Position numbers and translations under genes: made by a program. Of a stretch of 64,000 nt of DNA, positions 7,881 to 52,597 are shown piece after piece. A model generated the notes under the pieces. That model made no database searches and was not told where the DNA came from. It saw nothing but the letters and a program-made list of their open reading frames with translations. How positions within the stretch are numbered: the first letter of the stretch is position 1; each line of letters starts with the position of its first letter. The stretch comes from Candidatus Woesebacteria bacterium (GTDB lineage: Bacteria; Patescibacteriota; Microgenomatia; UBA8517). The stretch spans positions 724,582 through 788,581 of the forward strand of contig CP058602.1 of the NCBI GenBank assembly GCA_013426185.1, in the 5' to 3' direction.

Positions 7881-7940
7881 CTTCTTTTCTGATATAATAT
7901 AACTCTAGCGATTTTTCCTTGATGAAATTTTGAGGTCAAG

Positions 7941-8012
7941 GGTCGGTAACTCAGCGGCAGAGTACCACTCTTATAAAGTGGGAGTCGGTGGTTCGAATCC
8001 ACCCCGACCCAC
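7941..8012 (+). tRNA. tRNA with anticodon UAU (apparent tRNA-Ile(UAU))
   Basis: cloverleaf folded by hand: acceptor GGGTCGG/CCGACCC, D-stem ACTC/GAGT, anticodon stem CCACT/AGTGG, loop CTTATAA, T-arm GGTGG-TTCGAAT-CCACC, discriminator A. Confidence 0.7.
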
Positions 8013-8055
8013 CCTTAGGTAAATAATTCTTAGGAAGCGCTTTTTTTGAGGTTTT

Positions 8056-8922
8056 TTATAACTCTTCTAATTCCTGTTTGTTTCCCGCTTCTTTGATGCC
8101 CGCAAGCTCGAGATAACTTTCAGTGGTTGAGAGCCTTTTGTGCCCTGCAACTTGGGAAAGCAAAACCAAATTTACCCCTGCTTTTAAATTCTCAACTATG
8201 AAAGTGGTGCGCAAGTCGTTAATGGTATAGCTTGGCATTTCTGCTTTTTGAATATACCTATTGATAGTTGATCTGATGTTTCTGACAGCAAGCGGCTTTC
8301 CGTTTTTGCTTACAAAAAAGTAAGGAGAATCACTTTTTGGTCTTTCATTCTTAAGATAATTGTCAAGAGCCTCTTTTGCTCTTTTGTTTAAAGGAATAAC
8401 TCTTTCAGGTTGGCTGGCATAAGCTTCAATTTTTATTTCTTTATCACCTACATTTGCAAGTTTGAGGTTGGCTACCTCTGAAATTCTAAGCCCTGTTTGA
8501 AGAATTAATTCTACGATGGCTGCTGTTCTCAAGTCAGAACGTACAGTGTCTCTTAAAGCACGGTACTCAAGTTTAGAAAGGAATTTAGGCTTGGCAGGTT
8601 CTGTTTTTGGATGAGAAACATCTTGAGCAGGGTTACTTGAGATATGTTTTTGTTCAACAGCAAATTTAAAAAATGTCTTTATTGCGTTTAGTTTCCTTGA
8701 AACGCTTTTGGGTGTGTATTTTTCAGCAAGGAGGGTATCGCGATAGGCCTCAATTAGCTCCTTTCCTATTGATTGGATATAAGGCTTTTGTTTCTTTTCT
8801 GCGAAATCCACAAACTGCTCAAGGTCCGCCCTATAAGCTATAATAGTTGAGGGCGACCTTTTTTTATCTTCCAGACTTTTGATAAAGTTTGGGAGCAGAG
8901 CCTTTAACATTGTTTGTTCCAT
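8056..8922 (-). CDS. tyrosine recombinase (XerC/XerD-like integrase)
   Basis: N-terminal SAM-like domain, C-terminal R...HxxR...Y block (AGHKRLSTTESYLEL); lies 44 nt from a tRNA gene. Confidence 0.75.
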   Translation of the reverse strand: MEQTMLKALLPNFIKSLEDKKRSPSTIIAYRADLEQFVDFAEKKQKPYIQSIGKELIEAYRDTLLAEKYTPKSVSRKLNAIKTFFKFAVEQKHISSNPAQDVSHPKTEPAKPKFLSKLEYRALRDTVRSDLRTAAIVELILQTGLRISEVANLKLANVGDKEIKIEAYASQPERVIPLNKRAKEALDNYLKNERPKSDSPYFFVSKNGKPLAVRNIRSTINRYIQKAEMPSYTINDLRTTFIVENLKAGVNLVLLSQVAGHKRLSTTESYLELAGIKEAGNKQELEEL

Positions 8923-9419: not shown

Positions 9420-9705
9420 TTGCGGGGCTGGGGATCGAACCCAGTCTGGAAGATTATGCCTAAAGTTTTCTCCGATTTCTCGAGAGTGTCGGACTATGTC
9501 TTGCCCGTGAGATAAGAAATCTATCTCAAGGGCTTTGGCGTATAGTCTCTACGGATTTTACATTCATGTAAACCGAACGTAATCTTTCCTCGGCGTTGCC
9601 ATGATCAAATAGATTTTAGGTTTCGCCGATATAGCCAAATTTTTCCCCCATTAAATCGAGGGAAGCCCATTTTGAGCCTTCCGTGCAGCCGTACACTACC
9701 CCGCA
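9420..9705 (-). tRNA. tRNA(CAU) (elongator Met or Ile2/lysidine type) interrupted between U33 and C34 by a group I intron
   Basis: 5' exon TGCGGGGTAGTGTACGGCTGCACGGAAGGCT (9705-9675) and 3' exon CATAATCTTCCAGACTGGGTTCGATCCCCAGCCCCGCA (9458-9421) join to a 69-nt cloverleaf with loop CUCAUAA; acceptor TGCGGGG/CCCCGCA. Confidence 0.75.
9459..9674 (-). ncRNA. group I intron (IC3-like, Azoarcus tRNA-Ile intron-like core) inside tRNA(CAU)
   Basis: 5' exon ends in U, intron ends in G (..ACUUUAGG). An internal guide sequence (GGGCUUCC) pairs with the exon end (GGAAGGCU). Core blocks AUCGGCGAAACCUAA, AUGGCAACGCCGAG and CCGUAGAGACUAUACG resemble the Azoarcus/cyanobacterial tRNA introns as I recall them from memory. 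Confidence 0.7.
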
Positions 9706-9800
9706 TGTTAACTATAAAGAACATGCGCATTATACATGGAATTTGGTAGTTAAGCAACCCCCAATGCGTACCAGTATATATAGTATAATATAACTTAAGG

Positions 9801-10487
9801 ATGGCAAAATTTAAGGAGAGAATAAGGGCAAGAGAGTTAAGGAGGGAAGGTAGAAGCATTAAAGAAATAGCCAGATTGTTAAATGTTTCTCCGGATTCTG
9901 TTAGTCGTTGGTGTAAAGAAGTAAAACTATCAAAAGGTCAAATAAGAGAGTTAGAGAGACGTTGGAAAGATCCAAACTATGGAAAGAGATTAGAGAATTC
10001 TTTAAGACAACAAAAGAAGAGAATATTAAAAACAGAAAAATTGAAGAAGGCGGGTGTAAAAGAGATAGGCAATTTATCTAAAAGAGAACTATTCTTAGTC
10101 GGGGCTTCTTTGTACTGGGCAGAAGGATTCAAAAAAGATAGTCAAGTCGGGTTTGCCAACTCTAGTCCCGAGATGATGAATCTATTTCTCAGATGGCTTT
10201 ATGAGTGCTTTGGTTATAATACTAACGATCTAATGCTAAGGGTAACGGTAAACGTAAGTCATAAATATAGGATCGACGAAATTCAGAATTACTGGTCAGA
10301 AATTACAAAGATTCCTCTGGATAACTTTCAGAAACCCTTTTATCAAAATTTTAAGTGGAAGAAAATTTACGAGAACCCAAATGAATACTACGGTATATTA
10401 AGAATAAAGGTTCGCAAAAGCACTGATTTTTTAAGGAAAATACATGGATATATAGAAGGTTTGAAATTACAATCTCAAATAAGGTAA
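9801..10487 (+). CDS. HTH-domain protein with LAGLIDADG-like C-terminal region (putative free-standing homing endonuclease)
   Basis: N-terminal HTH (RSIKEIARLLNVSPDSVSRW). The block LFLVGASLYWAEGF...FANS resembles the LAGLIDADG of the 16S intron ORF. A decayed paralog at 44870..45559 is also followed by a tRNA. Confidence 0.4.
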   Translation: MAKFKERIRARELRREGRSIKEIARLLNVSPDSVSRWCKEVKLSKGQIRELERRWKDPNYGKRLENSLRQQKKRILKTEKLKKAGVKEIGNLSKRELFLVGASLYWAEGFKKDSQVGFANSSPEMMNLFLRWLYECFGYNTNDLMLRVTVNVSHKYRIDEIQNYWSEITKIPLDNFQKPFYQNFKWKKIYENPNEYYGILRIKVRKSTDFLRKIHGYIEGLKLQSQIR

Positions 10488-11011: not shown

Positions 11012-12013
11012 ATGAAACGTGTTTTTTCAGGTTCAAGACCGACGGGGAAGCTTCATCTTGGTAATTACTTGGGTGGGGTTAAAGGTTATTTGGAGCTTGC
11101 TAGAAACCCACAATTTGAGACTATTTATATGGTGATGGATTTGCATGCTGTTACCACTCCTTTTGATAGAAATAGCTTGGCGCAAAATACAAAAGATGTG
11201 ATTTTGGATTACTTAGCCTCGGGCCTTGATCCTGAAAAATCAATAATTACTGTCCAATCGCTTGTTCCTGAGCACACTTATCTTGCTCACTTGATATCAT
11301 CCACAGTAACAGTGGCCCGTATGCTTCACTTGCCGACTTACAAAGAAAAAATAAAACAGTATCCAAAAGAAGCAACTATGGCTCTTTTGAATTACCCAGT
11401 TCTTATGGCGGCTGATATCTTAGCTTACAAGGCGGATCTAGTTCCAGTGGGAGTTGATCAAGAGCCACATCTTGAGGTAGCCCGTGAGATAGCAAGAAAA
11501 ATGAACGAGAAGTATGGCACTAATTTTCCTGAACCAAAAAGATTTGCAACCAAGGGTGAGTACATTCCTTCTTTGACAGGGGAGGGAAAGATGAGTAAAT
11601 CAGTTGAGGGTAGTTACATTAATTTAACTGATTCACTTGAAGAAATAAGGGCAAAATTGGCTCGAGTTCCAACTGATAGTGGTAGTGGTACCACTGTGCC
11701 TCAAGAAGGCGGAGTATTTACCCTTTTGCTTTTCTCTGGTCTTTTTCTTGGCGATGACGCTCAAAAAGAGCTTGAAGCACAATATACATCATCTGGTATT
11801 AGGTACAAAGAACTAAAAGATAGGCTGGCTAGCGCTATTTTTGAAGAATTAAAGCCGATTCAGGAAAGAAGAAAAGAGATAGAATCAAGAAAAGGCTATC
11901 TTGAAGATGTAATTTTGGATGGAGCAAAGAAGGCAAGAAAAATAGCCTCCCAGATATTGGAGGAGACAAGAGAAAAAATGGGATTTATAAGATTGGTAGA
12001 AAGTAGAACGTAG
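11012..12013 (+). CDS. trpS: tryptophan--tRNA ligase
   Basis: class I HIGH-like TGKLHLGNYLG at N-terminus and KMSKS motif. Confidence 0.9.
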   Translation: MKRVFSGSRPTGKLHLGNYLGGVKGYLELARNPQFETIYMVMDLHAVTTPFDRNSLAQNTKDVILDYLASGLDPEKSIITVQSLVPEHTYLAHLISSTVTVARMLHLPTYKEKIKQYPKEATMALLNYPVLMAADILAYKADLVPVGVDQEPHLEVAREIARKMNEKYGTNFPEPKRFATKGEYIPSLTGEGKMSKSVEGSYINLTDSLEEIRAKLARVPTDSGSGTTVPQEGGVFTLLLFSGLFLGDDAQKELEAQYTSSGIRYKELKDRLASAIFEELKPIQERRKEIESRKGYLEDVILDGAKKARKIASQILEETREKMGFIRLVESRT

Positions 12014-12255
12014 TAAGTATAAAGCAAATAAATAGTTAAAAGTTCAAAGTGCAAAGTTAAAAGTTGGAATTTACTATTCTGTAATTTGAAAAATTGGATA
12101 ATTGTAGAATTGTTTAGAATTTAGGATTTGGACCTTGTAATTTGGAGCTTGGAATTTGTTTGTAATTTGTATATTGGAATTTGTAATTTTATTCTATAAT
12201 CCAAAATCTATAATCTAATCATAAAGTTTTGAATTTTAAGTTTTGAGTTATTTTT
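12014..12255. repeat. mosaic AT-rich modular intergenic repeat region (modules shared with 17419-17782, 55064-55542 etc.)
   Basis: contains gtagaacgtagtaagta..., ttgtaatttggagcttggaatttgtttgtaatttg, tctataatccaaaatctataatcta modules; about 230 nt is the reverse complement of 55100-55330. Confidence 0.8.
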
Positions 12256-12603
12256 ATGTTTATTTCTTTTGACCAATTTTCTCAGGTTGATATAAGAATT
12301 GGAACGGTGGTTAAGGCCGAGGTGCCTGAGTGGAGCCATTGGGTTATGAGACTTGAGGTTGATTTTGGAGAAGAAATTGGCAAAAAGACTTGTTTTTCAG
12401 GCATTATGAAGTTTTTTAAACCGGAAGAGCTTGTTGGTAGACAATTTCCTTTTGTTATTAACCTTGAACCTAAAAGAATAGGACCTGATAAAGAGTTGAG
12501 TGAATGTATGATGATAATGGCGGTTCCTTCAGAAGATGAAGACACTGCTCCTGTTCTTTTTTCTCTTTCAGAAAAAGTTGAAAACGGAACGAGAGTAAGG
12601 TGA
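12256..12603 (+). CDS. tRNA-binding domain protein (CsaA/Trbp111/EMAP-like)
   Basis: QVDIRIGTVVKAEVPE... OB-fold tRNA-binding signature. Confidence 0.65.
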   Translation: MFISFDQFSQVDIRIGTVVKAEVPEWSHWVMRLEVDFGEEIGKKTCFSGIMKFFKPEELVGRQFPFVINLEPKRIGPDKELSECMMIMAVPSEDEDTAPVLFSLSEKVENGTRVR

Positions 12604-13123
12604 TAGCTGGGACTAGGGAGCTAGTCGGAGTTGGTCGAAGTTAGTCCTCGCTTACAGCGAGGCTGGTCAAAGCTGGTCGGAAGACAGTATCTAGTATCTT
12701 GTATTATGTATTATGGGAACAATGCATTTTCCTGCATAATACTTAATTCATAATACTAAATTCAGTGTTCCTAATTTGTTTGTGATTTGAAAAATTGGAA
12801 AATTGTAATTTGTTTAGGATTTAGAATTTGGAATTTGTATATTGTAATTTGTTTGTAATTTGGAACTTGGAATTTGGAATTTTGATTTTTACTCTTTGTT
12901 CTCTGTTCTAACCTGGTAGGTAAAAGGCAAGAGGTAAAAGAATTCGGATTTCAGCTATCAGCTGTCAGCTGTGGGAGTTAGTTGTTATCTTAATTCATAA
13001 ATCCTAAATCATAAATCAAAATTCTGTAATCTAATTTTTGACTTTTGAGTTTTAAGTTTTGAGTTATACTTTTGACTTTTAATTTTTGAGTTAGCTCGTT
13101 TTTAAGTGTATAATTAGCTGCTT
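12604..13123. repeat. mosaic modular intergenic repeat region including a 110-nt inverted-repeat module (12676-12790)
   Basis: modules tcggaagacagtatctagtat..gtattatgtattatg[GGAACAATGCATTTTCCTG]cataatac..., gaattcggatttcagctatcagctgtcagctg, ggtaaaaggcaagaggtaaaag. Confidence 0.8.
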
Positions 13124-15884: not shown

Positions 15885-15909
15885 TATCTAGTATTTAGTA
15901 TTATGAATT

Positions 15910-16284
15910 ATGGGGAAGATACACCTTTTTTCTGATCTTAATGCCTGGAAAGAAGCTTATGAGCTTGTAATTTTAGTTTATAAACTTACTGATAAATTTC
16001 CTGCTAAGGAAAATTATGCTCTGACTGGCCAGATGAGAAGATCTGCGGTGTCTATATCTAGCAATATTGCTGAAGGGTTTAGTAGAAGAGGCAAAAGAGA
16101 GAAGATTTTGTTTTATTCAACTTCTTTAGGTTCGCTTACCGAGCTTCAAAGTCAGGTATTGATAGCCAAGGGAGTTGGTTATCTGAGCGGGGAGGATGTA
16201 ACTGCCATTAATGAGAGATTAACTGTTGTTCATAAGCTGATAAACGGTTTAATTAAAGGTGTTACAAAATTGCATAATACATAA
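15910..16284 (+). CDS. four-helix-bundle protein (23S rRNA intervening-sequence protein / Avd-like family), located outside rRNA
   Basis: family signature ...RSAVSISSNIAEGF...; gene is bracketed by the two arms of the long inverted-repeat module (15889-15912 and 16270-16300). Confidence 0.7.
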   Translation: MGKIHLFSDLNAWKEAYELVILVYKLTDKFPAKENYALTGQMRRSAVSISSNIAEGFSRRGKREKILFYSTSLGSLTELQSQVLIAKGVGYLSGEDVTAINERLTVVHKLINGLIKGVTKLHNT

Positions 16285-16287
16285 TAC

Positions 16288-17418
16288 ATGATTCATAATT
16301 CATTTAAAATTGCTTTAGTTCATGACTATATTAAAGAGTTTGGTGGGGCAGAGAGGGTTTTAAAGGTTTTGACTGAGATTTTTCCTGACGCGCCAATCTT
16401 TACTGCTTTTTGTGTTAAAAATTCAACGGCAGAAAAAGAGTTTCGAGGTAAGGAAATCAAGGAAAGCTTTCTTGCGCCTATTTTAAAGCTAGGCAAGCTT
16501 TATTCTCCTTTGCGTTTTTTGATTCCTACAATTTGGGGCAGTTTTGATCTGTCTTCTTATGATTTGGTGATTACTTCCTGCAGTTGGTATGTCACGCGTG
16601 GGTTTAAAACTGGAAAAAGGACAAAAGTTATAGCTTATTGTCATACTCCTCCGCGCTGGCTTTATGGGTATGAGACATCAGTCGGTTTTACCAAATACTG
16701 GCCGGTCAAAATTTATGCTTCAATTGTAGGGCATTTTATCAGGCTTTATGATTTTAAAACTGCCCAAGAAGTTGATTTTTGGATTGCCAATTCTAAAAAT
16801 GTAGCCTCAAGAATTGAAAAGTTTTATAGAAAAAAATCGGTTGTAGTTTACCCTCCTGTTGAAGTTGAAAAAATTATAGATTACACATCTTCTTTCAAAA
16901 AAAAGGAAAATTATTATTTAATTGCTTCCCGCCTCGTGGGGGCAAAGGGGATAGAGGAGGCAATATCTATTTTTCAAAAGCTTGGCAAAAAACTTAAGAT
17001 AGTGGGTGAGGCTCATGGTTTTTCTGATGTTGAATCAAAAGTAAAAGGCGGTAAGTCTAAAAACATAGAATTTTTAGGTAGAGTTTCAGATGAGGAGCTG
17101 TGGGAGCTATATGCAAGATCGAAGGCTTTTGTTGCTTTAGCGCGTGATGAAGATTTTGGAATGACAGTGGTTGAAGCGCAGGCCGCAGGAACGCCAGTTA
17201 TTGCTTTTAACGGCGGCGGATTTAAAGAGTCAGTTATTGATAATGTGACAGGGGTTTTGATTGATGAAGTGAACGAGGCTTCAGTAAGAGAAGCAATTAA
17301 GAAGATCGAAAGAAAAAATTGGAATAAGGCGATTCTTCAAAAAAATGCGAGAAGATTTTCAAAGGAGAGATTTGTTAAAAAGATCAAGAAAATAGTTGGG
17401 AAGCTAGGCCAAAGCTAA
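16288..17418 (+). CDS. glycosyltransferase family 4
   Basis: C-terminal EDFGMTVVEAQAAGTPVIA GT4 signature. Confidence 0.75.
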   Translation: MIHNSFKIALVHDYIKEFGGAERVLKVLTEIFPDAPIFTAFCVKNSTAEKEFRGKEIKESFLAPILKLGKLYSPLRFLIPTIWGSFDLSSYDLVITSCSWYVTRGFKTGKRTKVIAYCHTPPRWLYGYETSVGFTKYWPVKIYASIVGHFIRLYDFKTAQEVDFWIANSKNVASRIEKFYRKKSVVVYPPVEVEKIIDYTSSFKKKENYYLIASRLVGAKGIEEAISIFQKLGKKLKIVGEAHGFSDVESKVKGGKSKNIEFLGRVSDEELWELYARSKAFVALARDEDFGMTVVEAQAAGTPVIAFNGGGFKESVIDNVTGVLIDEVNEASVREAIKKIERKNWNKAILQKNARRFSKERFVKKIKKIVGKLGQS

Positions 17419-17782
17419 TCGGAAGCCAGTATTTAGTATTTTGTATTATGCAGAGAATACAGGTAGAAAGTAGAATGTAGTAAGTAGAAAGCAAATAAAT
17501 AGTTAAAAGTTCAAAGTGCAAAGTTAAAAGAATTCGGATTTCAGCTGTCAGCCGTCAGCTATCAGATTTGAGCGCTATCTAATTCATAAATCTTAAATCC
17601 TAAATCTAGATTCTATGACTTATTTGTAATTTGGAATTTGCCTGCCCGCAATCGCTAAAGCGATAGCTTTTGCAGGCGGGGAATTTGTAATTTTATTCTA
17701 TAATCCAAAATCTATAATCTAGTGTTTTGTGGTAAATTTCAGGTTAAGGAGGTAAAATAGGGGAAAATAAGCAAAACCTTAG
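17419..17782. repeat. mosaic modular intergenic repeat region (left flank of R-M island)
   Basis: modules gtagaaagtagaatgtagtaagtagaaagcaaataaatagttaaaagttcaaagtgcaaag, gaattcggatttcagctgtcagccgtcagc, ggaatttgcctgcccgcaat..gcaggcgggg (also inside 23S at about 56420-56465). Confidence 0.8.
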
Positions 17783-19633
17783 TTGGCAAAAAAAATGAGC
17801 GACAACAATAACCAAGTTGCTGTAGATAAAACAGAGCTTGTCTGGCCCGGGAAGCGTAGGGAAGTTGAGCGAGTGGAGCTTCCGTTTCAGACGATTGAAA
17901 CTATTAATCTTCCGCGTGGTAGGCGACAAGAATCTATCTTTGAAGCAATCCAAAAACAGCAATCTTTGATTTCTCAACCAGAACAACAAATTCTTAGATC
18001 AGAGGAAGGAGAATGGAAAAATCGACTTATTTGGGGTGACAATCTCTTGGTAATGGGTTCGCTTATTAAAGAATTTGCCGGGAAAATTAATCTCATCTAC
18101 ATTGACCCGCCATTTGCGACCGGCGATGATTTTTCCTTTACCGTAAACATCGGCGACCAAGCGGAAATTACCAAAGAGCCGTCCGCGCTGGAAGTAAAAG
18201 CATATCGCGACACGTGGGGCAAAGGCATGCAATCATACCTTCAAATGATGTATGACCGCCTTGTTTTAATGAAAGAGCTTTTGGCAGATAATGGTTCAAT
18301 TTATGTGCATCTGGATTGGCATGTGGGGCATTATGTAAAAATTTTGATGGATGAAATTTTTGGGAGAGATAATTTTAGGAATGAGATTGTTTGGCGTTAT
18401 GGAAAAATGGCAGCTTCATCTAAAAAGTTTTTGTCGAATCATGATGTAATACTTTTCTATACAAAGAGCTATAATTTCACTTTCAATCAGCAATTTATAG
18501 CGTTGGATAAGCCAATTAAAAGATTGGCTAGGACGGTGCGTGATGGGAAACTCGTAAATGTTAAAGATGAAAAAGGTAATTTAGTATATGTCGAAAAGAG
18601 TGACAGAATAGTTGACGATGTCTGGGATGATATTTCTACGGTTATGCATGCCAGCCCTCAATTTCTTAATTTTCCAACACAAAAACCACAGCTACTACTA
18701 GAGCGAATAATCAAAACTTCAAGTAATGAAGGCGATTTAGTAGCTGATTTTTTCTGCGGCTCCGGTACTACTGGAGTTGTAGCAGAAAAACTTGGCAGGC
18801 GGTGGATTATGTGCGATTTGGGGCGATTTGCCATCCACACTACTCGCAAGCGGCTTTTGGATATGGGAGCAAAGCCGTTTGTGGTGCAAAATCTTGGCAA
18901 ATACGAGCGCCACCGCTGGGTGCAACTTAATGGCAGATACAAAGATTACATCAAGTTTATTTTGGAGCTTTATCATGCTGAACCAGTAGAAGGATTTACA
19001 AATTTACATGGCAAAAAAGGAAGTAGTTTTGTTCGCGTGGGAAGTGTTGATGCGCCGGTAACCCTTTCTGAAATCCGTGAAGCCTTGGAAGAATGTAAAG
19101 AAAATAACATCAGAAAATTAGATGTGCTTGGTTGGGAATGGGAAATGGGTTTACATGATTTGGTAAAAGAGGAAGCAGAAAAATATGGGGTAAAACTTGT
19201 GACCCTGCAAATACCGCGAGAGGTTATGGATATTTCTCCGGCGGAAGCAAAAAAACACGACATTCAATTTTTTGAACTTGCTTATTTAGAAGTTGAGCCA
19301 AAAGTTGAAGGTAGGCACGTAACAATTACACTCAAAGATTTTATCATCCCTAATCCTGAATTATTGCCAGAAGAAATAAAAGGCAAGGTAAAAAGTTGGA
19401 GCGATTTTATTGATTATTGGGCAGTGGACTGGATGTTTAATCAGCATGAGGAAGTGACCGAAGAAGATGATACTTTCCATAATATGAACCAGCACTACCG
19501 CACCCGCAAAGAGCCGAAACTGGAACTTTCAATGGGTTACGAATACAAGAATGCCGGAAAATACAATGTGTTAGTAAAAGTAATAGATATATTTGGAAAT
19601 GACACCACCAAGCTTATACAAATTAAAGTTTAG
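17783..19633 (+). CDS. mod: Type III-like restriction-modification Mod subunit (beta-class N6-adenine DNA methyltransferase)
   Basis: motif IV IYIDPPF precedes motif I FCGSGTTGVVAEKLGRRWIMCD (IV-before-I order). Confidence 0.7.
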   Translation: MAKKMSDNNNQVAVDKTELVWPGKRREVERVELPFQTIETINLPRGRRQESIFEAIQKQQSLISQPEQQILRSEEGEWKNRLIWGDNLLVMGSLIKEFAGKINLIYIDPPFATGDDFSFTVNIGDQAEITKEPSALEVKAYRDTWGKGMQSYLQMMYDRLVLMKELLADNGSIYVHLDWHVGHYVKILMDEIFGRDNFRNEIVWRYGKMAASSKKFLSNHDVILFYTKSYNFTFNQQFIALDKPIKRLARTVRDGKLVNVKDEKGNLVYVEKSDRIVDDVWDDISTVMHASPQFLNFPTQKPQLLLERIIKTSSNEGDLVADFFCGSGTTGVVAEKLGRRWIMCDLGRFAIHTTRKRLLDMGAKPFVVQNLGKYERHRWVQLNGRYKDYIKFILELYHAEPVEGFTNLHGKKGSSFVRVGSVDAPVTLSEIREALEECKENNIRKLDVLGWEWEMGLHDLVKEEAEKYGVKLVTLQIPREVMDISPAEAKKHDIQFFELAYLEVEPKVEGRHVTITLKDFIIPNPELLPEEIKGKVKSWSDFIDYWAVDWMFNQHEEVTEEDDTFHNMNQHYRTRKEPKLELSMGYEYKNAGKYNVLVKVIDIFGNDTTKLIQIKV

Positions 19634-19733
19634 TCAAAGTCATTGCCTGCCCCGTAGTCAGCTTTGCTGTACTACTGGGGATATCTTTGGCAATGACACG
19701 ACGAAATTAATTGAAGTTAAGGTTAAATAATCT

Positions 19734-22508
19734 ATGTCAGACACGACAACAAAACCATATAGAGGTTCGGAGTGGAAGAAGTGGGATTTACAAATCCACA
19801 CTTATCTCGATCCTAACTGGAAGTGGCCTTCTGGATACCCAAATGGGAACGATCGACAGCAAGAGCGTATTGCCAAGTTTGAGAACGACTTTATACGGCA
19901 TTGCATTGAAAATCGAATTGAAGGCGTAGCCATAACCGACCACAATGCTGGCGACGCTATAGATGGCTTATTGGTAAAAAATAGAGAACTTGGAAACAAA
20001 GTCACTATCTTGCCCGGGGTAGAAGTTGCAAGCGACGGAGGTACACACCTACTTATAATTTTTGACCCTTCATCTTTTATTAGAAAAAATCGTTGGAATA
20101 CATGGCGAGAAACAGTAGACCATTTCTTAACCGCAATTTTTACAGACAACCCCCGATTTGAGGAACAGAACGGAAGAAATACTCCACTCAATCCTGCTTC
20201 ATCTATTGACCAAATTATCAAGAAAGCAAAAGAGTATTCTGCGATTGTGATTTTTCCTCATGTTTTTTCGCAAGGAACAGGTTTGTTTAGTTGTGACTCA
20301 CGAACTCGCAAAAGGGTTTTGAAAACCTGCAATATTCTGGATATCGCTTGTGTGCAAAGAGACATACAAAAGAAAACAGATGAAGCGAACCGAAAACTTA
20401 CCGGACAAGGTTTCGATTCTAATGATTTTGCTTTTATAAACACTTCTGACTCCCGCAGAATTGAGGATGTCGGTTCAAAGTTCACTTGGATAAAAGCAGA
20501 TGCTACTTTTGAGGGACTGCGACAAATTATCCACGAACCAAAGACACGTGTCAGTATACAAGAAAATCCTCCTTTGTATTTACACCCGCAAATTATTTCT
20601 GCAAAGTTACTCAATGCAAGTAGTTATCAATCCAAGAAAAGCGATTTTCCACCGATTACGCTAACCAAGGAAATATTTTTTAGTCCAAACTTAACTACAA
20701 TTATTGGCCCGAGAGCGGCTGGAAAAACTGTTTTAGTTGAGCTTATCGGTTATGTAGCGAATAGGTTTTCAACGGATAAAAGAGACAAGAAACTCCCATT
20801 GGTGGAATTTTTAAGTAAAGAGTTTTCTGACATTGAAATAGAGGTAACTTTTCAGAGTGGCGCCGAAGAAGTTACCACACTGAAACGTCCGGTGAAGGAA
20901 TGGAACGACCCTTTTTACACTTCGCCTTTCAAAATTGAGTATTGGGCGCAGGGCGAAATCGAGAGAATAGCAAATAGTTCTAATCAAATATCTGATTATA
21001 TTGAGCAAAATTGGCTTAATTCTGATTTCCTCACCAAAACAAAAAGGGAAATAGAAACTTTGCAGAAAGAGATGAAATCTTTGAGAGGTAACTACTCTAA
21101 CAAACTACAAATAGAGATTGAGAAGAAAAAACTTGAAGCCGAGCGTAAACAAATTGAGGCGTACTTCAACAAATTGAAGGCAGAAGAATACAAGCAGATT
21201 ACTGGAAAGATAAAGGAGAACAGGGTAAAGCGTCAGATGATTGAGGGCTTAGTTCAGGACATTAAGAACCAAGCTGCCCTTCTTAAAAATCTTGCGGTAC
21301 AGGTTAGGTTTTTCAGCACGGTTGATAAAGACAAGGTTTTGGAGCTTTTTAGTGCACGGGATCCGTTGAGAAAAAAGATTGAAGGATTTTATCAACTTAA
21401 GGAAACACAACTGGATGCCATCGTTACTGATTTGGAAACGACAGCGAAAGCAATTGAGGACTCGGATGTTAAAAAATCACTTGATAAAGAAAACACGGAA
21501 CTTATCAAGCAGTTTACTGATTACTGTAAAACTAACGGCATTATGATTAGTAAGGGAGAGGTAGAAAAGCGAAATGATAGGATTAAATTCATTGACCAGC
21601 AAGTATCCAAACTAGAAAGCCAACTCCAAAAATTTGAAGGTGATCAAAAACGACACGGGCAACTTGCTGCTGAATTGAGCACAAAACTAAAACTCTGGGA
21701 AAAAGAAAATAATAAACTCATCAATGGATTCAACAGACAATTTGGGAACACGCAAATTTCCGCCTTTTGGAATAATCCAGCGAGTGAGATTGCTGGCTGG
21801 ATAAAAGCGCAATTTCTAGATTCAAACTCGAATCTGAAAGGATTAATTGAAAAAAACTTTAAGACAAAATCACCGGTGCGAGAAGATTATCTTGCGGATA
21901 TCATAGATGAATTGGTTGATAAGTATGGTGATAAAGCGCGAGAAGAAATTGCTTCTATTCTTAAACAAAACAAAGCGCCAAAACTACAAGATAGTAGTGG
22001 AAAAACGGAAACTATACGCTGGTTTTTTGAAGATGAGAATACAAAGCCTATTCGGGAAGATATTATTATGAGGCTAAATGAGTATGCTGAAACGGGCAAC
22101 AATTATATCAAATACGGAAATAAGGTGCTCGGCAAGGACAGTATGTCTTTTGGTGAACGGTGTGGGACACTTGTTGAACTTATACTGCTGTCCGGCGACC
22201 ATCCATTAATTATTGACCAGCCAGAAGATCACTTGGACGCAAAATTCGTGGCGGAAAGAGTCGTTACTTTAATTCGGGAACAGAAGCCTAATAGACAAAT
22301 TATTATCTGTACGCACAATGCAAATATAGTCGTATTGGGTGATTCGGAATTAGTAACTGCGTTAGCGGTAAGTAGTCGAGACAAAGTAAGTATCGAACAA
22401 GGTTCTCTGGAAAATATCCAGATGAAAAAAACAATTTTTGATGTTTTGGAAGGTGGCGAAAGTGCCTTTAAGAAACGTGAGCAAAAATATGGCGAAGCAA
22501 TCAGCTAA
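19734..22508 (+). CDS. PHP-family phosphoesterase fused to coiled-coil ABC/SMC-like (OLD/AAA15-type) ATPase; Ppl-like defence protein
   Basis: N-terminal His-rich PHP blocks (IHTYLDP, AITDHN, THLLIIFD, FPHVFS), Walker A GPRAAGKT, long coiled coil, C-terminal Walker B/D-loop LIIDQPEDHLD and ICTHNAN. Confidence 0.55.
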   Translation: MSDTTTKPYRGSEWKKWDLQIHTYLDPNWKWPSGYPNGNDRQQERIAKFENDFIRHCIENRIEGVAITDHNAGDAIDGLLVKNRELGNKVTILPGVEVASDGGTHLLIIFDPSSFIRKNRWNTWRETVDHFLTAIFTDNPRFEEQNGRNTPLNPASSIDQIIKKAKEYSAIVIFPHVFSQGTGLFSCDSRTRKRVLKTCNILDIACVQRDIQKKTDEANRKLTGQGFDSNDFAFINTSDSRRIEDVGSKFTWIKADATFEGLRQIIHEPKTRVSIQENPPLYLHPQIISAKLLNASSYQSKKSDFPPITLTKEIFFSPNLTTIIGPRAAGKTVLVELIGYVANRFSTDKRDKKLPLVEFLSKEFSDIEIEVTFQSGAEEVTTLKRPVKEWNDPFYTSPFKIEYWAQGEIERIANSSNQISDYIEQNWLNSDFLTKTKREIETLQKEMKSLRGNYSNKLQIEIEKKKLEAERKQIEAYFNKLKAEEYKQITGKIKENRVKRQMIEGLVQDIKNQAALLKNLAVQVRFFSTVDKDKVLELFSARDPLRKKIEGFYQLKETQLDAIVTDLETTAKAIEDSDVKKSLDKENTELIKQFTDYCKTNGIMISKGEVEKRNDRIKFIDQQVSKLESQLQKFEGDQKRHGQLAAELSTKLKLWEKENNKLINGFNRQFGNTQISAFWNNPASEIAGWIKAQFLDSNSNLKGLIEKNFKTKSPVREDYLADIIDELVDKYGDKAREEIASILKQNKAPKLQDSSGKTETIRWFFEDENTKPIREDIIMRLNEYAETGNNYIKYGNKVLGKDSMSFGERCGTLVELILLSGDHPLIIDQPEDHLDAKFVAERVVTLIREQKPNRQIIICTHNANIVVLGDSELVTALAVSSRDKVSIEQGSLENIQMKKTIFDVLEGGESAFKKREQKYGEAIS

Positions 22509-24981
22509 ACAACAATCGGCATTGCCTCTTGTCCGCGCGTTGCAGCCGGTGGTGGCGGCGTGGCGCGAGGGTGGATACAAAGAAGGCACGAGTGAGACAA
22601 CTCGGCGGCTTTTGGAGTGGTGGTTTTGGGAAGACCACGAATTTGCCGACGGAAAACCTTTTGCTTTTTGGCAAGCGCAAAGAAAAGCGATTGAAAATTT
22701 GATTTATTGCTACGAAGTTTTAGAAACGCGCAGTTTGTATCAGTTAGCGCAACGGCTTGATGCAAGGATCCCAGTTGATCCCAGTTCAGATAAATGGGCA
22801 AAATACGCTTTCAAAATGGCAACAGGTTCAGGCAAAACAATGGTGATGGCAATGGCAATTGTTTGGTCATATTTTAATGCGATAAAAGAAAAGCGAGACG
22901 ATTTTACAAAAAATTTTGTGCTTATTGCGCCAAACTTAATTGTGCTTGATCGTTTAATGGGTGATTCAAAAAATCCAGAATTTTTTGAAGGTGGGATTTT
23001 TAAGAAATTTCCTTTTATTCCACCAGAATGGTCATCAGATTTTCAGCTTGATGTCATCGGGCCTGACGAGGAGCGGGAAAGCACTAAACCTGCGACACTT
23101 TATCTTTTAAACTGGCAAAAATTTGTTGAGCGAGAAAACGGTGAAACAGAAAATCCAGTGCAGGATATTTTGGGCCCAAAACCGCCGAGCGAAATTGCTG
23201 TTTCTTTGGCAAAACTCAAAGACAGATTGTCTCGTCTTTCAAATGTGATGGTAATAAATGATGAAGCGCATCGCGTTTGGAGTGAAGAGCTGGTTTGGTA
23301 CAAAGCGATTGAAAATATGTACAATACTGCAGGTCTTATGTGCCAACTTGATTTTTCGGCAACACCAAAAGACCAACAAGGAAATTTATTTACTCATATT
23401 ATTACTGATTATGATTTGGGAAGTGCAATTGAAGATAATATTGTCAAGCGCCCCAAAATCGCCGAGCTTGAAAACGTGCCAGAAATTGAAAGTAAAAAAG
23501 CATCTGAAAAATATCGTGTTCAAATTGATGCAGGTATTAAGCAGTGGAAAATAATGAGAAAAGCGCTTGCTCCAACAGGCAAAAAGCCGGTAATATTTTT
23601 TGTTACAGAAGATAATAAAGCCGCTGATGAAGTTGCTGAATATCTGCAGACGTTTCCTGAATTTAGCGGAGACAAAACTTTAACTATTCATTCCAGTAGA
23701 GCAAAAGATCAGATTGCTGAAAAAGATTTAGCAAAAGCCCGAAAAGCGGCTCGTGAGATTGACTTGCCAAATAATCCTCATAATGCAATTGTTTCAGTTT
23801 TGATGCTTCGTGAGGGTTGGGATGTAAAAAATGTAGTTGTGGTTGTGCCTTTGCGGTCTTTTAGCGCTAAAGCAAAAATTTTTCCAGAGCAGACACTTGG
23901 TAGAGGTTTGCGCAAAATGTGGCCGGAGCAAAAAGATTTAATAGAGGAATTAATTGTTATAGAGCATCCCGAGTTCCATAATTTAATTGAGCAGGCTCTT
24001 GCTGAACAAGGAGTAAAAATTGAATTTACAAAAATTGATGAAGCATATACACCACCAATTATCATTCAAGTTGAAAAGGGTAAGGAAAAGTTTGATATAG
24101 AAGTGCCAATGCTTTCCGGCGGACTGACACATTCTGTAAAAGGAATTGAGAAATTACAAGCAAGTGCTTTAGAAAAGGGTTTATTTGATTACGACTCTTT
24201 GCAGGCGCGAGATGTTGTGATGCGTAAGGTGGATATGCTCACAAAGAAAGAGGAGGGAAAAGAAATATTAGAATTTCCCTATGCTGATAATCCCCAGATT
24301 TATATTGCAAGTATTGCTAATGCAGTTTTGCGGTTTGCGCGAATACCAGGACATTTTGATAAAATTGCCCCAATTGTTAAGGAATACATTGAAAAATATC
24401 TTTTTGAGAGAGAAGTTAATGTTGAAAGTCTTGAGACATTAAAAAAACTTAATCATCCAAAAGTACGCAGCGCAATAGTTTCTGTTCTTGTCGATGCCAT
24501 AAACAATTTGACAGTAGTCTCAGAAGAGATGAAGCTTGAAAATCGAAGGTCGTGTGCATCAGAAATTAAACCTTTTCCGTGGACAAAAGTTGCTGTAGTA
24601 GCGCAAAAGTGCATATTGAATTTTGTACCAGTTGATAATGATTTTGAAGCGAAGTTTGTGAGATTTCTTGATGGAGCAAATGATGTTGATGCTTTTATTA
24701 AGAACGAAACACGAACAATCAATCTTAAGATTCCGTATATTGCCAAGGACGGATTTTTGCGTCGCTACATTCCCGATTTTATCGTTAAAACGAAAAATGC
24801 AACAGCAATTGTAGAAACAAAGGGACGTGAGGACGTTGACGTGGCGGCGAAGGATTTGCAAGGTAAAAGATGGTGTGAGGAGCTTGGCAAGCGAACTGGA
24901 ACAAGATGGATGTTCTTGCGCATTGACCAAAAGGAATTTGAAAAAGCGAGGTATAACAAGTTTGCAGAATTGATAATCTGA
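22489..24981 (+). CDS. res: Type III-like restriction enzyme Res subunit (SF2 helicase + PD-(D/E)xK nuclease)
   Basis: Helicase motif I (TGSGKT), DEAH box (VINDEAHR) and motif III (SATP), plus a C-terminal nuclease block (IPDF...VETKG). The start was chosen at ATG 22489 (MAKQSAKQQ), overlapping the upstream stop by 20 nt; the longer ORF from 22438 was not used. Confidence 0.7.
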   Translation: MAKQSAKQQSALPLVRALQPVVAAWREGGYKEGTSETTRRLLEWWFWEDHEFADGKPFAFWQAQRKAIENLIYCYEVLETRSLYQLAQRLDARIPVDPSSDKWAKYAFKMATGSGKTMVMAMAIVWSYFNAIKEKRDDFTKNFVLIAPNLIVLDRLMGDSKNPEFFEGGIFKKFPFIPPEWSSDFQLDVIGPDEERESTKPATLYLLNWQKFVERENGETENPVQDILGPKPPSEIAVSLAKLKDRLSRLSNVMVINDEAHRVWSEELVWYKAIENMYNTAGLMCQLDFSATPKDQQGNLFTHIITDYDLGSAIEDNIVKRPKIAELENVPEIESKKASEKYRVQIDAGIKQWKIMRKALAPTGKKPVIFFVTEDNKAADEVAEYLQTFPEFSGDKTLTIHSSRAKDQIAEKDLAKARKAAREIDLPNNPHNAIVSVLMLREGWDVKNVVVVVPLRSFSAKAKIFPEQTLGRGLRKMWPEQKDLIEELIVIEHPEFHNLIEQALAEQGVKIEFTKIDEAYTPPIIIQVEKGKEKFDIEVPMLSGGLTHSVKGIEKLQASALEKGLFDYDSLQARDVVMRKVDMLTKKEEGKEILEFPYADNPQIYIASIANAVLRFARIPGHFDKIAPIVKEYIEKYLFEREVNVESLETLKKLNHPKVRSAIVSVLVDAINNLTVVSEEMKLENRRSCASEIKPFPWTKVAVVAQKCILNFVPVDNDFEAKFVRFLDGANDVDAFIKNETRTINLKIPYIAKDGFLRRYIPDFIVKTKNATAIVETKGREDVDVAAKDLQGKRWCEELGKRTGTRWMFLRIDQKEFEKARYNKFAELII

Positions 24982-25252
24982 CTTTACCCACCGCCGACTT
25001 TTCCGCCTTGCGCCAATCCATACTAGCGCAAGCATTTAATCAAAGTAAAGAATTCTGATGTTTCATTCGTTGTAATTTATAGTTTTATTCGTTAAAGTTT
25101 TTTCTAAAGTTCTATTGAACGATTAACTTTTGTTATGTTTTGTCATTAATCGGGTGATTGTAGTTTGTCTATTGTTTGGAATTTGTAATTTCATTCGATA
25201 ATCTATAATCCAAATTCTATAATCAGAGTTTTGGGTTTGGTATAATACTCTT
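24982..25252. repeat. modular repeat region (right flank of R-M island), ends in TGGTATAAT extended -10 7 nt before mutM ATG
   Basis: modules ttggaatttgtaatttcattcgataatctataatccaaattctataatc; TGgTATAAT at 25238-25246. Confidence 0.6.
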
Positions 25253-30234: not shown

Positions 30235-30504
30235 TAAATAGGCGAAGTTGGTCGGAAGGTTGTATTTATATCTTGTATTATGCAGGGAATACAAGTAGAA
30301 AGCAGAACGTAGTAAGTAGAAAGCAAAATTAATAAATAGTTAAAAGTTGTGTATTATCCTTTCTACTTTATACTTACTACTTTCTACTAATTTTAAGTTT
30401 TGACTTTTAAGTTTTAAGTTAGGTTGTACTTTGGATTTTGGGATTTGGAATTTTATTCTATAATCTATTTTCCCCTTATCTCTTTTCCCCAGATTTAGTA
30501 TAAT
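30235..30504. repeat. mosaic modular intergenic repeat region containing an inverted pair of the GTAGAAAG module
   Basis: caagtagaaagcagaacgtagtaagtagaaagc ... cctttctactttatacttactactttctac (reverse complement), tttggattttgggatttggaattttattctataatc. Confidence 0.8.
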
Positions 30505-37283: not shown

Positions 37284-37601
37284 ATGGTAAGACGAAATAA
37301 TGCTCCTCTTCAAAAGAGTTTCTTGAAAATTGGAGATATTCTTAAGGATTTCAAGCCTGATGAAGATAAATATATTTCTTATGAGTTTCAGAAATATGGT
37401 TATGATTTAGCAAGTGAGCTTGGGGATTTGAAAAATAAGTCTTTATACATCAAGCTTGCAAAAGAAGTGCCAAGAGGCTTGCTTGAGGAGGCGCGCAATT
37501 TTGTCAAAGATGCTTATAATGTCAAATCCAAGCCCAAGTTGTTTATGTGGAAGCTGAGCGAGCTTAAAAAGCGAGCGAAGCTTACACACAAGAGGAGTTG
37601 A
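37284..37601 (+). CDS. hypothetical protein whose 3' end runs into the first unit of a tandem repeat
   Basis: ORF only; C-terminus MWKLSELKKRAKLTHKRS is re-encoded by later repeat units. Confidence 0.3.
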   Translation: MVRRNNAPLQKSFLKIGDILKDFKPDEDKYISYEFQKYGYDLASELGDLKNKSLYIKLAKEVPRGLLEEARNFVKDAYNVKSKPKLFMWKLSELKKRAKLTHKRS

Positions 37602-37837
37602 GCGAAGCGAAAATCTCTTATGTGGAAGCTTTCTCGCCTGAGGGGCGAGAAAGCTGAAACACAAGAGGAGCGCAAGCTTTAGCTGAGAACTCTTATGTGG
37701 AAGCTTTCGCAGCTGAAAGCTGCGAAAGCAGACACGCAAGAGCCGCGCAGGCCCTAGGCCGAGAATCTTATGTGGAAGACAAGCGAGCTTAAAAAGCGAG
37801 CGAAGCTTACACACAAGAGGAGTTGAGCAAAGCTTAG
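37543..37837 (+). repeat. tandem array of four 75-nt units (TTATGTGGAAG - 12-bp hairpin - ACACAAGAGGAG - variable tail)
   Basis: Unit starts at 37543, 37618, 37693 and 37768, an exact 75-nt period. The hairpin cores differ between units but stay complementary (CTTTCTCGCC/GGCGAGAAAG versus CTTTCGCAGC/GCTGCGAAAG). Confidence 0.8.
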
Positions 37838-42353: not shown

Positions 42354-42677
42354 CACATTAACTTAAAACTTAAAAGTCAAAAGTATAACTCAAAACTTAA
42401 AACTCAAAAGTCAAAAATTAGATTATAGATTTTGGATTAGAGATTAGAGAATAAAATTCCAAATCCCAAGCTCCAAATTACAAACAAATCACAGAATCTA
42501 GATTTAGGATTTAAGATTTATGAATTAAGATAGCAATCAACTCCGACAGCCGACGGCTGATAGCTGAAATCCGAATTCTTTTACCTTTTACCTCTTGCCT
42601 TTTACCTATTCTTGATACTTGATTCGTGATACTTGTATGTCTCGTTTGTGCTATCATAATATTGAGTTTTACAAAAC
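42354..42677. repeat. mosaic modular intergenic repeat region (reverse-complement modules)
   Basis: reverse complements of ttgagttttaagttttgag, tctataatct, ttggaatttg, gaattcggatttcagctatcagccgtcggctgtcgg, ggtaaaaggcaagaggtaaaag, and the cgtgatac/caagtatcaag module. Confidence 0.8.
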
Positions 42678-44519: not shown

Positions 44520-44693
44520 ATCGGTATCACGTATCACGAATCAAGTATCAAGAATAGGTAAAAGAGTAAAAGTTGAAAGCTAAAAGAGATCCAAGTAGAA
44601 AGTAGAACGTAGTAAGTAGAAAGCAAAATTCTATAATCTATAATCCAAAATCTATAATCTAATTTTTGACTTTTGAGTTTTAAATTAAATCTG
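44520..44693. repeat. modular intergenic repeat region
   Basis: tcacgtatcacgaatcaagtatcaagaataggtaaaagagtaaaag, caagtagaaagtagaacgtagtaagtagaaagcaaa, tctataatctataatccaaaatctataatc, tttgacttttgagttttaaa. Confidence 0.8.
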
Positions 44694-50869: not shown

Positions 50870-50919
<50 letters not shown>

Positions 50920-52591: not shown

Positions 52592-52597
52592 TAAAAC

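Follow-up and report, generated by a model that had tools for sequence, protein, structure and literature searches.

The long intergenic spacers of a 64,000-nt stretch of the Candidatus Woesebacteria contig CP058602.1 (the whole stretch is called the window here) are strings of short heptanucleotide tandem arrays, the counterpart in the candidate phyla radiation (CPR) of the short tandemly repeated repetitive (STRR) sequences of cyanobacteria. At least 11 spacers carry such arrays, and arrays also lie within the 16S and 23S rRNA genes. We put at roughly 60% the probability that the spacers accumulate hairpin elements of the intervening-sequence (IVS) type together with their decayed remains, and that a substantial share of the arrays are arms or leftover arms of such elements. 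An intact element would comprise a left heptamer array, a gene of family PF05635 and a complementary heptamer array. PF05635 is a family named "23S rRNA intervening-sequence protein" (S23p; IVP below), a four-helix bundle related to Avd of diversity-generating retroelements (DGRs). Observed were the arrays, block homology between loci, strain indels of 7 nt or of module size, covariation of arm type with the IVP paralogue, derivatives that lack the open reading frame (ORF), copies in the rRNA genes and an array-IVP association that crosses phyla. The TrpS of the window has its nearest matches among Woesebacteria and Microgenomates proteins, and the same species occurs in the metagenome-assembled genome GCA_020725745.1 and in several ENA and JGI metagenomes, whose contigs were used for comparison; fetched related contigs and loci carry L-numbers (L001, L091 etc.).

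Heptamer arrays in the spacers

An earlier note on this DNA had described the long intergenic regions as mosaics of shuffled modules. The regions that it listed are non-coding spacers by the ORF map, although their coordinates add up to 3.4 kb and not to the total of about 3.8 kb that it gave. A recount allowing 2-4 mismatches, with shuffled sequence as control, found its modules 3-8 times in the window and never in the shuffles (GTAGAAAGTAGAAC..., 6 copies; TTGTAATTTGGA..., 8; TCTATAATCC..., 5; GAATTCGGATTTCAGCTG..., 4; GGTAAAAGGCAAG..., 3; TGAGTTTTAAGTTTTGAG, 8). The regions also share similar blocks of 60-142 nt (75-97% identity), both direct and inverted. The two copies of about 230 nt reported as near-identical were less alike (85% identity in a gapped alignment of 164 nt, 78% in an ungapped one of 142 nt), and the CCTCGC hairpin, described with a varying 6-nt loop, occurs just twice (12646-12662 and 55460-55476), with a loop of 5 nt. 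Not noticed there were the 7-nt period, the association with IVP genes and the copies in rRNA.

Every module proved to be a short tandem array, imperfect and 3-6 units long, of a single heptanucleotide. This follows from three results: Tandem Repeats Finder returned a period of 7 (or 14 or 21) for essentially all modules; lag-7 identity was 0.52 within the listed regions vs. 0.27 elsewhere, with echoes at lags 14 and 21 and unremarkable values at other lags; and a sliding lag-7 scan gave 1095 windows above threshold (approximately 10 in shuffles), which merged into 33 segments. The alternative that the modules are generic AT-rich low-complexity sequence is refuted. The heptamers include GTAGAAA, TAAAAGT, ATTTGGA/TTTGTAA, TCTATAA, AAGTTTT/TTTTGAC, AGTATCT, GTATTAT (with its complement CATAATA), TCAGCTG, ATCATAA, GTAAAAG and CAAGTAT. 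The modules are also present in related genomes, namely in close-relative contigs and in JGI metagenomes, where a 28-nt pattern of the GTAGAAA module matched 81 stretches (at least 12 on one 283-kb contig). In these JGI stretches (570 kb) lag-7 periodicity reached 80 per mille of bases, vs. 3-12 at lags 5, 6, 8, 9 and 10. Among 896 arrays in 634 kb of same-species and close-relative contigs, 875 lay outside ORFs of at least 120 amino acids and 21 within them.

Arrays remodel gene ends as well. The earlier note had seen a module overlapping the 3' codons of trpS, and the GTAGAAA array that begins at 11995 indeed provides the last six codons and the stop (11995-12013, the ORF ending at 12013); TrpS has 333 amino acids here vs. 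approximately 328 in most of its closest homologues. At a glycosyltransferase (GT) gene, array sequence provides the start and first codons (16288-16302).

The arrays follow a largely constant order, with omissions (CAAGTAT, GTAAAAG, GTAGAAA, TAAAAGT, a hairpin in some cases, TCAGCTG, ATCATAA, ATTTGGA, TCTATAA, AAGTTTT), in both orientations; reversed cassettes occupy two spacers (42354-42677 and 55108-55330). The succession of imperfect unit variants within an array is also common to several loci (e.g. GTAGAAA-GTAGAAC-GTAGTAA-GTAGAAA-GCAAA), indicating that blocks were copied between loci and not made independently. This argues against a local origin of the arrays as autonomous microsatellites, formed by slippage in situ and spread by gene conversion, with IVP genes inserting into, or being tolerated in, repeat-rich spacers. 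We regard that explanation as unlikely, although solo arrays are in the majority, isolated arrays of unrelated heptamers occur in other Microgenomates lineages and, in the account of Mrazek 2007 given in PMC4679880, heptamers are the commonest class of 5-11-nt repeats and polymerase slippage is proposed as their source. The preference for 7 nt may reflect a bias of polymerase slippage or a benefit of stems that tolerate a change of register. The idea that 7-nt arrays serve to place stop codons in three frames was dropped: chance alone puts stop triplets into AT-rich heptamers, and ATTTGGA lacks them on both strands.

The order is polarised, GTAGAAA lying near the upstream stop codon and AAGTTTT/TTTTGAC adjoining the downstream start codon, as might be expected of regulatory cassettes (promoter, UP-element or terminator modules, or binding arrays for S1, Csp or a CsrA-like post-transcriptional regulator). 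One good sigma-70-like site does lie in a spacer, at its invariant 3' edge, and the TAACTGA repeats of Beggiatoaceae, found just 5' of start codons, have been proposed as binding arrays for a post-transcriptional regulator (PMC4679880). However, the promoter/terminator cassettes suggested earlier were not borne out: in a consensus scan of 11.9-17.9 kb, predicted sites were no commoner than in shuffles (promoter-like, 13 vs. 13.9 expected; terminator-like, 5 vs. 4.9), and within the arrays of this interval there was none except that at 13086-13114. The complete cassette at 42354-42677 is reversed between two plus-strand genes, spacers differ by hundreds of bases among strains whose flanking genes are 91-98% identical, and arrays also occur in rRNA helices, where a promoter or translation role would be senseless. 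We consider a regulatory origin of the cassettes quite improbable.

IVP genes between inverted arrays

The intergenic IVP gene of the window (15910-16284) matches PF05635 above the Pfam cut-off (E 2.5e-33) and PDB 2GSC (E 9.5e-24), and bAvd weakly. It is tightly placed between a 5'-3' exonuclease (exo) and the GT gene, a gap called the exo-GT site below. The whole element spans 15885-16302 on the plus strand, with a left arm of AGTATCT/GTATTAT units (15885-15909) and a right arm of CATAATA units (16271-16302) from which the GT start codon comes. A second IVP gene (49613-49975; PF05635, E 1.2e-26, above the Pfam cut-off) lies in helix 6 of the 16S rRNA. In total, the window holds two ORF-bearing copies (one intergenic, one in 16S helix 6), five ORF-less hairpins and many solo arms. 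Three of the common array types (GTATTAT/ATAATAC, GTAGAAA/TTTCTAC and GTAAAAG/CTTTTAC) serve as inverted arms of long hairpins that enclose an IVP gene here or in relatives.

Three ORF-less GTATTAT hairpins (12686-12764, 61509-61587 and 63550-63628; fold z -3.0 to -4.3) keep the start of the element (...ATTATGGGAAC...TTTTTCTG) fused to its end (CATAATACATAA...). At the junction TTTTTCTG meets CATAATAC, and the first codons and the end of the element are retained; judged by their sequence, these hairpins look like clean internal deletions of the element at 15885-16302. The two ORF-less GTAGAAA/TTTCTAC hairpins (30293-30388 and 55342-55436) correspond to the GTAGAAT/TTCTACT element type of relatives.

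The proposal that the modules are similar to miniature inverted-repeat transposable elements (MITEs) held in so far as the three GTATTAT hairpins resemble internal-deletion derivatives, but neither a target-site duplication nor a transposase was seen. Classical MITEs would be non-autonomous DNA transposons that depend on a transposase supplied in trans from another place in the genome. The dispersal of the copies and their presence/absence polymorphism fit this, and the window does encode a tyrosine recombinase (8056-8922) and a helix-turn-helix protein (9801-10487) whose N-terminal matches are transposase-like. Against this, the cassettes have no defined ends or shared terminal inverted repeats, variation is mainly gain and loss of internal modules, and the parent element encodes a four-helix-bundle IVP and not a transposase. 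Target-site duplications were absent from at least five insertion contexts: none was found around a nested 39-nt hairpin in five contexts, nor at the junctions of strain indels. A MITE origin is very improbable.

When the IVP protein was searched by tblastn over the fetched CPR loci, arrays flanked every homologue, the heptamer differing by lineage or paralogue, and the arms were inverted wherever both were compared. Arms were GTATTAT in the window strains and L020, ATGCTAT/CATAAAG in L029, GTAGAAT/TTCTACT (the first module of the earlier note) in L091, L054 and L026, and GTAAAAG/CTTTTAC (its fifth) in L094, L127 and L087. Duplexes of cognate arms had energies of -24 to -56 kcal/mol (z -2 to -9.6), and cross-pairing was confined to the same heptamer group. 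Such covariation of complementary arms with the IVP paralogue is not what microsatellites arising on their own would give.

The association was then quantified. Most of 80 species-representative Microgenomates loci, obtained via TrpS, had no lag-7 excess. The nearest complete genome, Woesebacteria Ch104a (TrpS 73% identical), had none either (4.4 per mille), and the trait is therefore patchy and not order-wide. A clear excess was seen in L012 (44 per mille), L029 (32), L046 (Chisholmbacteria, 28) and L050 (24), with heptamers unrelated to those of the window. Jackhmmer identified 18 IVP ORFs among the 3616 ORFs of all loci. Lag-7 arrays on both flanks accompanied 14 of the 18 IVP genes vs. 25 of 1207 other genes in the CPR loci (p = 2e-19), and 4/4 vs. 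4/828 in the species-representative Microgenomates loci. At the exo-GT site, 11 loci have a 406-486-nt spacer with an IVP gene and arms, while approximately 30 Microgenomates lineages without IVP have an array-free spacer of 0-45 nt; arrays are thus present at this site only where IVP is present, which also counts against autonomous microsatellites.

The association extends beyond the CPR. Among 72,556 plasmids searched by tblastn with the IVP protein, 48 records matched, mostly from Nostocales (Nostoc 21, Calothrix 4, Aulosira, Trichormus and others), the group best known for STRR heptamers. Fourteen non-CPR loci (Cyanobacteria, Bacteroidota, Gemmatimonadota and Alphaproteobacteria) were picked for taxonomic spread before their flanks were inspected. 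Both flanks passed a periodicity threshold of at least 0.75 in 10 of the 14 (vs. 3/72 other ORFs there, p = 7e-8), and at least one flank passed in all 14. In Nostoc C052, N. punctiforme and Aulosira, (TCAGGAG)n lies upstream and TTCTGAC/TCCTGAC downstream of the IVP gene; the corresponding pairs are GGGAAGA/TCCCTTT in Geminocystis, GGGTGTA/CTACACC in Calothrix and AAGGTTC/GAACCTT in Riemerella (Bacteroidota). A 23S helix-45 IVS of Azospirillum has CAGAGGA/CGGATGA arms, and the flanks in Picosynechococcus, Leptolyngbya and Gemmatirosa are octamer arrays. In the annotated non-CPR cases the IVP gene is mostly placed between co-oriented genes, in spacers of 17 to approximately 215 nt, three of them in CRISPR-Cas operons. 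These three are on plasmids of Picosynechococcus (L169), Pseudanabaena (L175) and Anabaena sp. 90 (L177), where the four-helix-bundle gene sits in the cas10/cmr2-cmr3 gap or the cas6-cas4 gap.

In the rRNA genes of the window, arrays form helix-tip insertions. The 16S gene (49487-51469) starts approximately 480 nt 5' of the first Rfam call, and its helix 6 is lengthened at the tip by an insertion of 458 nt, whose plus-strand arms, AACAATT (49560-49602) and TTGTTAA (49976-50008), form a stem of approximately 60 bp (-56 kcal/mol) around the second IVP gene; from arm to arm, this intervening sequence occupies 49560-50008. A second 16S expansion of 95 nt (50120-50215, plus strand; model position ~188) has a CA-rich 5' arm and a TG-rich 3' arm (GTTGTAA/GTTGATT), both heptamer arrays. 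The 23S gene (55916-60062) is 4147 nt long vs. 2925 nt in the model, with expansions at model positions ~165, ~283, 583 (helix 25), ~1067, 1218 (helix 45) and ~1494. On the plus strand the 23S expansions fall within 56078-58700 (~56078-56176; 56296-56496; 56786-56890, helix 25; 57574-57671, helix 45; ~57935-58110; 58390-58480; 58617-58690). Most of them, and the insertions at ~58390-58480 and 58617-58690, are hairpins with CA-rich heptamer 5' arms and UG-rich heptamer 3' arms; five that were folded had z -5.5 to -8.0, and some reuse the intergenic ATTTGGA/TTTGTGA modules. Siting at rRNA helix tips holds for the 16S helix 6 copy and for the ORF-less expansions of 23S helices 25 and 45, but not for the intergenic copies. 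Insertions in CPR 16S and 23S genes with 23S_rRNA_IVP ORFs are on record (PMC11270868).

The rRNA operon itself is split, 16S and 23S being 4.4 kb apart (51470-55915), and a TraG/VirD4-like coupling-protein gene (52787-54940) and tRNA-Ile(GAU) lie between them on the opposite strand. A 45-nt inverted repeat (49363-49407 and 52471-52515, 78% complementary) brackets the 16S gene and may be a precursor-processing stem.

We infer that the spacers grew by accretion of IVS-type elements whose stems are processed by RNase III, and that solo arrays are truncated elements. Elements would settle in sense orientation in very short gaps between co-transcribed genes, and at rRNA helix tips. In the host transcript their arms would pair into long stems of double-stranded RNA, and RNase III would cut these stems, as in the IVSs of Coxiella and Salmonella, releasing the element and separating the flanking RNAs; excision by RNase III is described for the Coxiella IVS (PMC4990558). 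Loss of the ORF by internal deletion would leave an ORF-less hairpin, and loss of one arm a solo array. Elements would also take up nested GC-clamp hairpins of 36-40 nt, multi-module blocks would be copied or recombined among spacers, which would yield the conserved module order, and replication slippage would change array length in 7-nt steps. Stems with periodic arms should tolerate such slippage because they can re-pair in another register. Finally, repeated cassettes would offer homology for the gain and loss of genomic islands.

Several results weigh against this reading. No target-site duplication, recombinase or reverse-transcriptase partner was found for the IVP elements, and to our knowledge IVP has no catalytic function. 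A search for the RNase III signature motif in all ORFs of the partial genome sequence was negative, a result that is uninformative because only part of the genome was covered. An inverted partner in the same spacer was present for only 163 of the 896 arrays in the 634 kb of relatives and for 4/43 in the window. The 163 fall below the label-permutation mean of 239, a mean that a few abundant families push up, since the GTAGAAA module was used to select the loci. The folds of whole spacers surpassed those of shuffles by only a modest margin (z -0.1 to -4.6, three spacers near 0). ATTTGGA, TCTATAA, AAGTTTT, TCAGCTG and TAAAAGT were never met as arms of an ORF-bearing element, so that tracing them to IVP elements is an extrapolation. 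The flanks in Pseudanabaena are direct and not inverted (GCTAAAA x13 and GCCAAAA x10). The idea that all modules are local hairpins was rejected on the weak whole-spacer folds and the un-enriched inverted partners.

As a wider and tentative generalisation, to which we give somewhat less than an even chance, PF05635 genes with inverted 7-nt (sometimes 8-nt) arrays may be a widespread, unrecognised class of hairpin-embedded selfish elements in rRNA helix tips and tight operon gaps, including those of CRISPR-Cas, across CPR, Cyanobacteria, Bacteroidota and Proteobacteria, and their ORF-less and one-armed remains a major source of STRR-type heptanucleotide repeats.

Strain variation and the individual spacers

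Spacer lengths differed widely between the window and its relatives (520 nt in the window vs. 292, 534 and 535; 364 vs. 254; 475 vs. 702 and 2184; 324 vs. 304, 364 and 483; 686 vs. 662 and 912), in overlapping contigs that were mostly 91-98% identical to the window over their longest alignments. In alignments of at least 96% identity the indels measured 7, 7, 7, 7, 11, 24, 27, 27 and 46 nt. Among four strains, the spacer upstream of ftsH differed by single heptamers (ATTTAGA and GGTAAAA), an 11-nt unit, a 27-nt unit and a 46-nt gap (that is, 7, 7, 11, 27 and 46 nt), while no difference was seen in the coding flanks or in roughly the final 50 nt ahead of the start codon. The separation of strains by 7-nt indels favours microsatellite slippage. 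The single-heptamer indels, found in four close comparisons, amount to unit-number variation as in phase-variation repeats, but the arrays are not placed as phase variation would have them: they lie 5' of the invariant promoter-like site of ftsH, and the flanking genes are housekeeping genes.

The 46-nt gap consists of a 39-nt GC-rich element (CCTGCCCGCAATGCTTTCAGCATAGCTGATGCAGGCGGG) and one GGTAAAA unit. In the window the same 39-nt insert lies inside a 23S expansion (56423-56461), and a sister hairpin with a different core lies at 17641-17680. Both belong to a family of GC-clamp hairpins of 36-40 nt (CCTGCCCGC-N18-22-GCAGGCGGG), which the related contigs carry in 50 copies with 12 different cores; each of the three main core variants has its own internal mini-hairpin. 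The copies examined were nested in AT-rich heptamer arrays, in contigs that include L086, L091, L107, L128, L139 and L163. The 39-nt variant occurred in at least five distinct flanking contexts without target duplication, and six more matches to the family were found in other Microgenomates loci.

Larger replacements were also seen. A 7.65-kb island (17531-25175) with genes for an N6/N4 DNA methylase, a UvrD-type helicase and a ResIII/SNF2 protein is missing in L091, which has one continuous cassette at the site. The island edges carry direct copies of a GGAATTTGTAATTT-TCTATAA block (17680-17721 and 25178-25224), and the island thus gives one case in support of the earlier suggestion that the modules act as recombination substrates. 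At the exo-GT site, L091 has a different IVP paralogue (48% amino acid identity) with GTAAAAG+GTAGAAA-type arms, between flanks that share 91-94% of their nucleotides with the window; the presence of a different paralogue at the same site indicates that whole elements were exchanged.

The composition of the individual spacers follows, on the plus strand unless another orientation is given. Between trpS and a tRNA-binding-domain gene (11995-12255) the arrays are GTAGAAA (11995-12024), TAAAAGT (12029-12066), ATTTGGA/TTTGTAA (12075-12195), TCTATAA (12193-12218) and AAGTTTT (12224-12249); this spacer was unchanged in strain L001 and 59 nt shorter in L115. The spacer 5' of ftsH (12604-13123) begins with decamer arrays around the CCTCGC hairpin (12646-12662), followed by AGTATCT, the ORF-less GTATTAT/ATAATAC hairpin (12686-12764), ATTTGGA (12787-12891), TTTGTTC, GTAAAAG (12918-12940), TCAGCTG (12943-12975), ATCATAA (12988-13025) and TTTTGAC/AAGTTTT (13032-13093), and ends with the promoter-like TTGAGT-17-TATAAT (13086-13114). 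The spacer after the GT gene (17419-17782), at the left edge of the variable island, contains AGTATTT, GTAGAAA (17460-17491), TAAAAGT (17496-17530), TCAGCTG, TAAATCT and ATTTGGA, the nested 40-nt GC-clamp hairpin (17641-17680) and a GGAATTTGTAATTTT-TCTATAA block (17680-17722). The spacer at its right edge (24982-25252) has an ATTTGGA/TCTATAA block (25164-25225) that repeats 17680-17721 directly.

In the spacer at 30235-30504 an ORF-less GTAGAAA/TTTCTAC hairpin (30293-30388, z -4.7) precedes TTTTAAG, TTTGGAA and TCTATAA. The complete reversed cassette (42354-42677) reads, in minus-strand order, CAAGTAT, GTAAAAG, TCAGCTG, TAAATCT, ATTTGGA, TCTATAA and AAGTTTT, and a short cassette (44520-44693) consists of CACGTAT/CAAGTAT, a GTAAAAG-like array, GTAGAAA (44591-44623), TCTATAA and TTTTGAC. 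Between tRNA-Ile (on the minus strand) and tRNA-Ala/23S, the spacer at 55064-55542 holds a reversed cassette (55108-55330), an ORF-less GTAGAAA/TTTCTAC hairpin (55342-55436, z -6.4) and decamer arrays with the CCTCGC hairpin (55449-55533); the whole spacer folds with z -4.6. The spacer at 61433-61900 contains GTAAAAG, GTAGAAA (61468-61505), an ORF-less GTATTAT/ATAATAC hairpin (61509-61587, z -3.8), TATCGGA, CAAGAAT and TCAGCTG, and that at 63466-63720 an ORF-less GTATTAT/ATAATAC hairpin (63550-63628, z -4.3) with arrays on either side and a 90% direct-repeat match.

A separate set of repeats at 37528-37833 is unrelated to the heptamer system. It comprises GC-richer tandem and direct repeats of 75-81 nt (Tandem Repeats Finder period 75, 2.2 copies), with 73-86% identity between repeat pairs and small hairpins such as GAAGCTTTCTCGCC...GGCGAGAAAGC.

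The window has 39% GC and carries nearly all of its genes on the plus strand. GC skew was positive in all 1-kb bins (1-64000), alongside this almost one-stranded gene layout; an unusual strand asymmetry has been described in other Microgenomates (PMC7143001). Rfam identified 16S, 23S and 5S rRNA, seven tRNAs and one group I intron, and at its gathering thresholds no known RNA family matched the spacers. The intron (9425-9770, minus strand; Rfam 9469-9726) apparently splits a tRNA gene (5' half GCGGGGTAGTGTACGGCTGCACGGAAGGCTCAAAA, 3' half ...GGGTTCGATCCCCAGCCCCGCA) that ARAGORN does not call. A tRNA-Ile with anticodon UAU, an uncommon bacterial solution for AUA, lies at 7940-8013.

Comparison with known systems

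In many bacteria no long simple repeat is commoner than the heptanucleotide tandem repeat. We know of no accepted origin or function for the cyanobacterial STRR, whose origin has been open since 1990, and of no role outside DGR Avd for PF05635, a very large family. The physical link between arrays and PF05635, seen in CPR, on cyanobacterial plasmids (Nostocales included), on those of Riemerella and Gemmatirosa and in the Azospirillum 23S IVS, offers a testable handle on both puzzles. In practical terms, repeat sequence that evolves fast and will break short-read assemblies makes up approximately 5% of a "streamlined" 0.8-Mb genome. This load brings strain-level length variation, marks at island boundaries, remodelled gene ends and enlarged rRNA genes. 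IVS elements and STRR-type repeats are themselves known; what is new is possibly the general link between arrays and IVP.

The closest parallel is the IVS with an S23p/IVP ORF (Leptospira, Coxiella burnetii, Brucella and Xanthomonas), which shares the long stem from inverted flanks, the PF05635 ORF in the loop and the rRNA helix-tip sites, including 23S helices 25 and 45. The Coxiella IVS even has 2-3 tandem GACAGAT units just 5' of its S23p ORF, in a number that varies among strains (PMC4990558), and the helix-45 IVS of Azospirillum has heptamer arms. In the literature searched on CPR heptamer repeats or a PF05635-heptamer link, this Coxiella remark was all that was found, with no generalising paper. 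Unlike classical IVSs, most copies in the window lie outside rRNA, between protein genes, and many lack the ORF or one arm; their arms are multi-unit heptamer arrays, with several element types joined into cassettes, and one ORF-bearing copy is in 16S helix 6 and not at a classical 23S site.

The mosaics of the window also recall the bacterial interspersed mosaic elements (BIMEs) of Escherichia coli, built on repetitive extragenic palindromic (REP) sequences, and the pneumococcal BOX elements, in which few modules are combined between genes in either orientation and variable number, some as hairpins. They differ in that the window modules are internally 7-nt periodic and that a coding parent element exists for some. 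No REP-type palindromic unit or RAYT transposase was seen in the window modules, which were not compared with the REP and BOX consensus sequences. The TAACTGA repeats of Beggiatoaceae, Cyanobacteria and Bacteroidetes are similar in forming 2-6 intergenic heptamer units near start codons with a patchy phylogeny, but consist of one dominant heptamer, vs. more than 12 families in the window, and no inverted pairing or ORF is described there (MacGregor 2015, PMC4679880).

The GC-clamp hairpins (CCTGCCCGC...GCAGGCGGG) are in turn tiny dispersed inserts in heptamer arrays, without target duplication, in which they resemble the small dispersed repeats (SDR) of Nostocales. Elhai et al. 2008 reportedly found SDR nested in the heptamer repeats of that group. 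The sequence and the host are different, and in the family found here the termini are conserved and the interior holds one of at least three alternative mini-hairpins.

STRR of heterocystous cyanobacteria have the canonical units CCCCAGT, TTGGTCA and CAACAGT, and extend RNase P RNA helices in these organisms. The window units (GTAGAAA, TAAAAGT, ATTTGGA, TCTATAA and others) are not canonical and belong to a CPR host; they are AT-rich, represent many families per genome and are joined in a conserved order. No published link between STRR and PF05635 genes was found in the literature searched. The two systems nevertheless share short dispersed 7-nt tandem arrays in non-coding DNA, structural-RNA helices lengthened by such arrays and, on cyanobacterial plasmids as in the window, arrays that flank four-helix-bundle genes.

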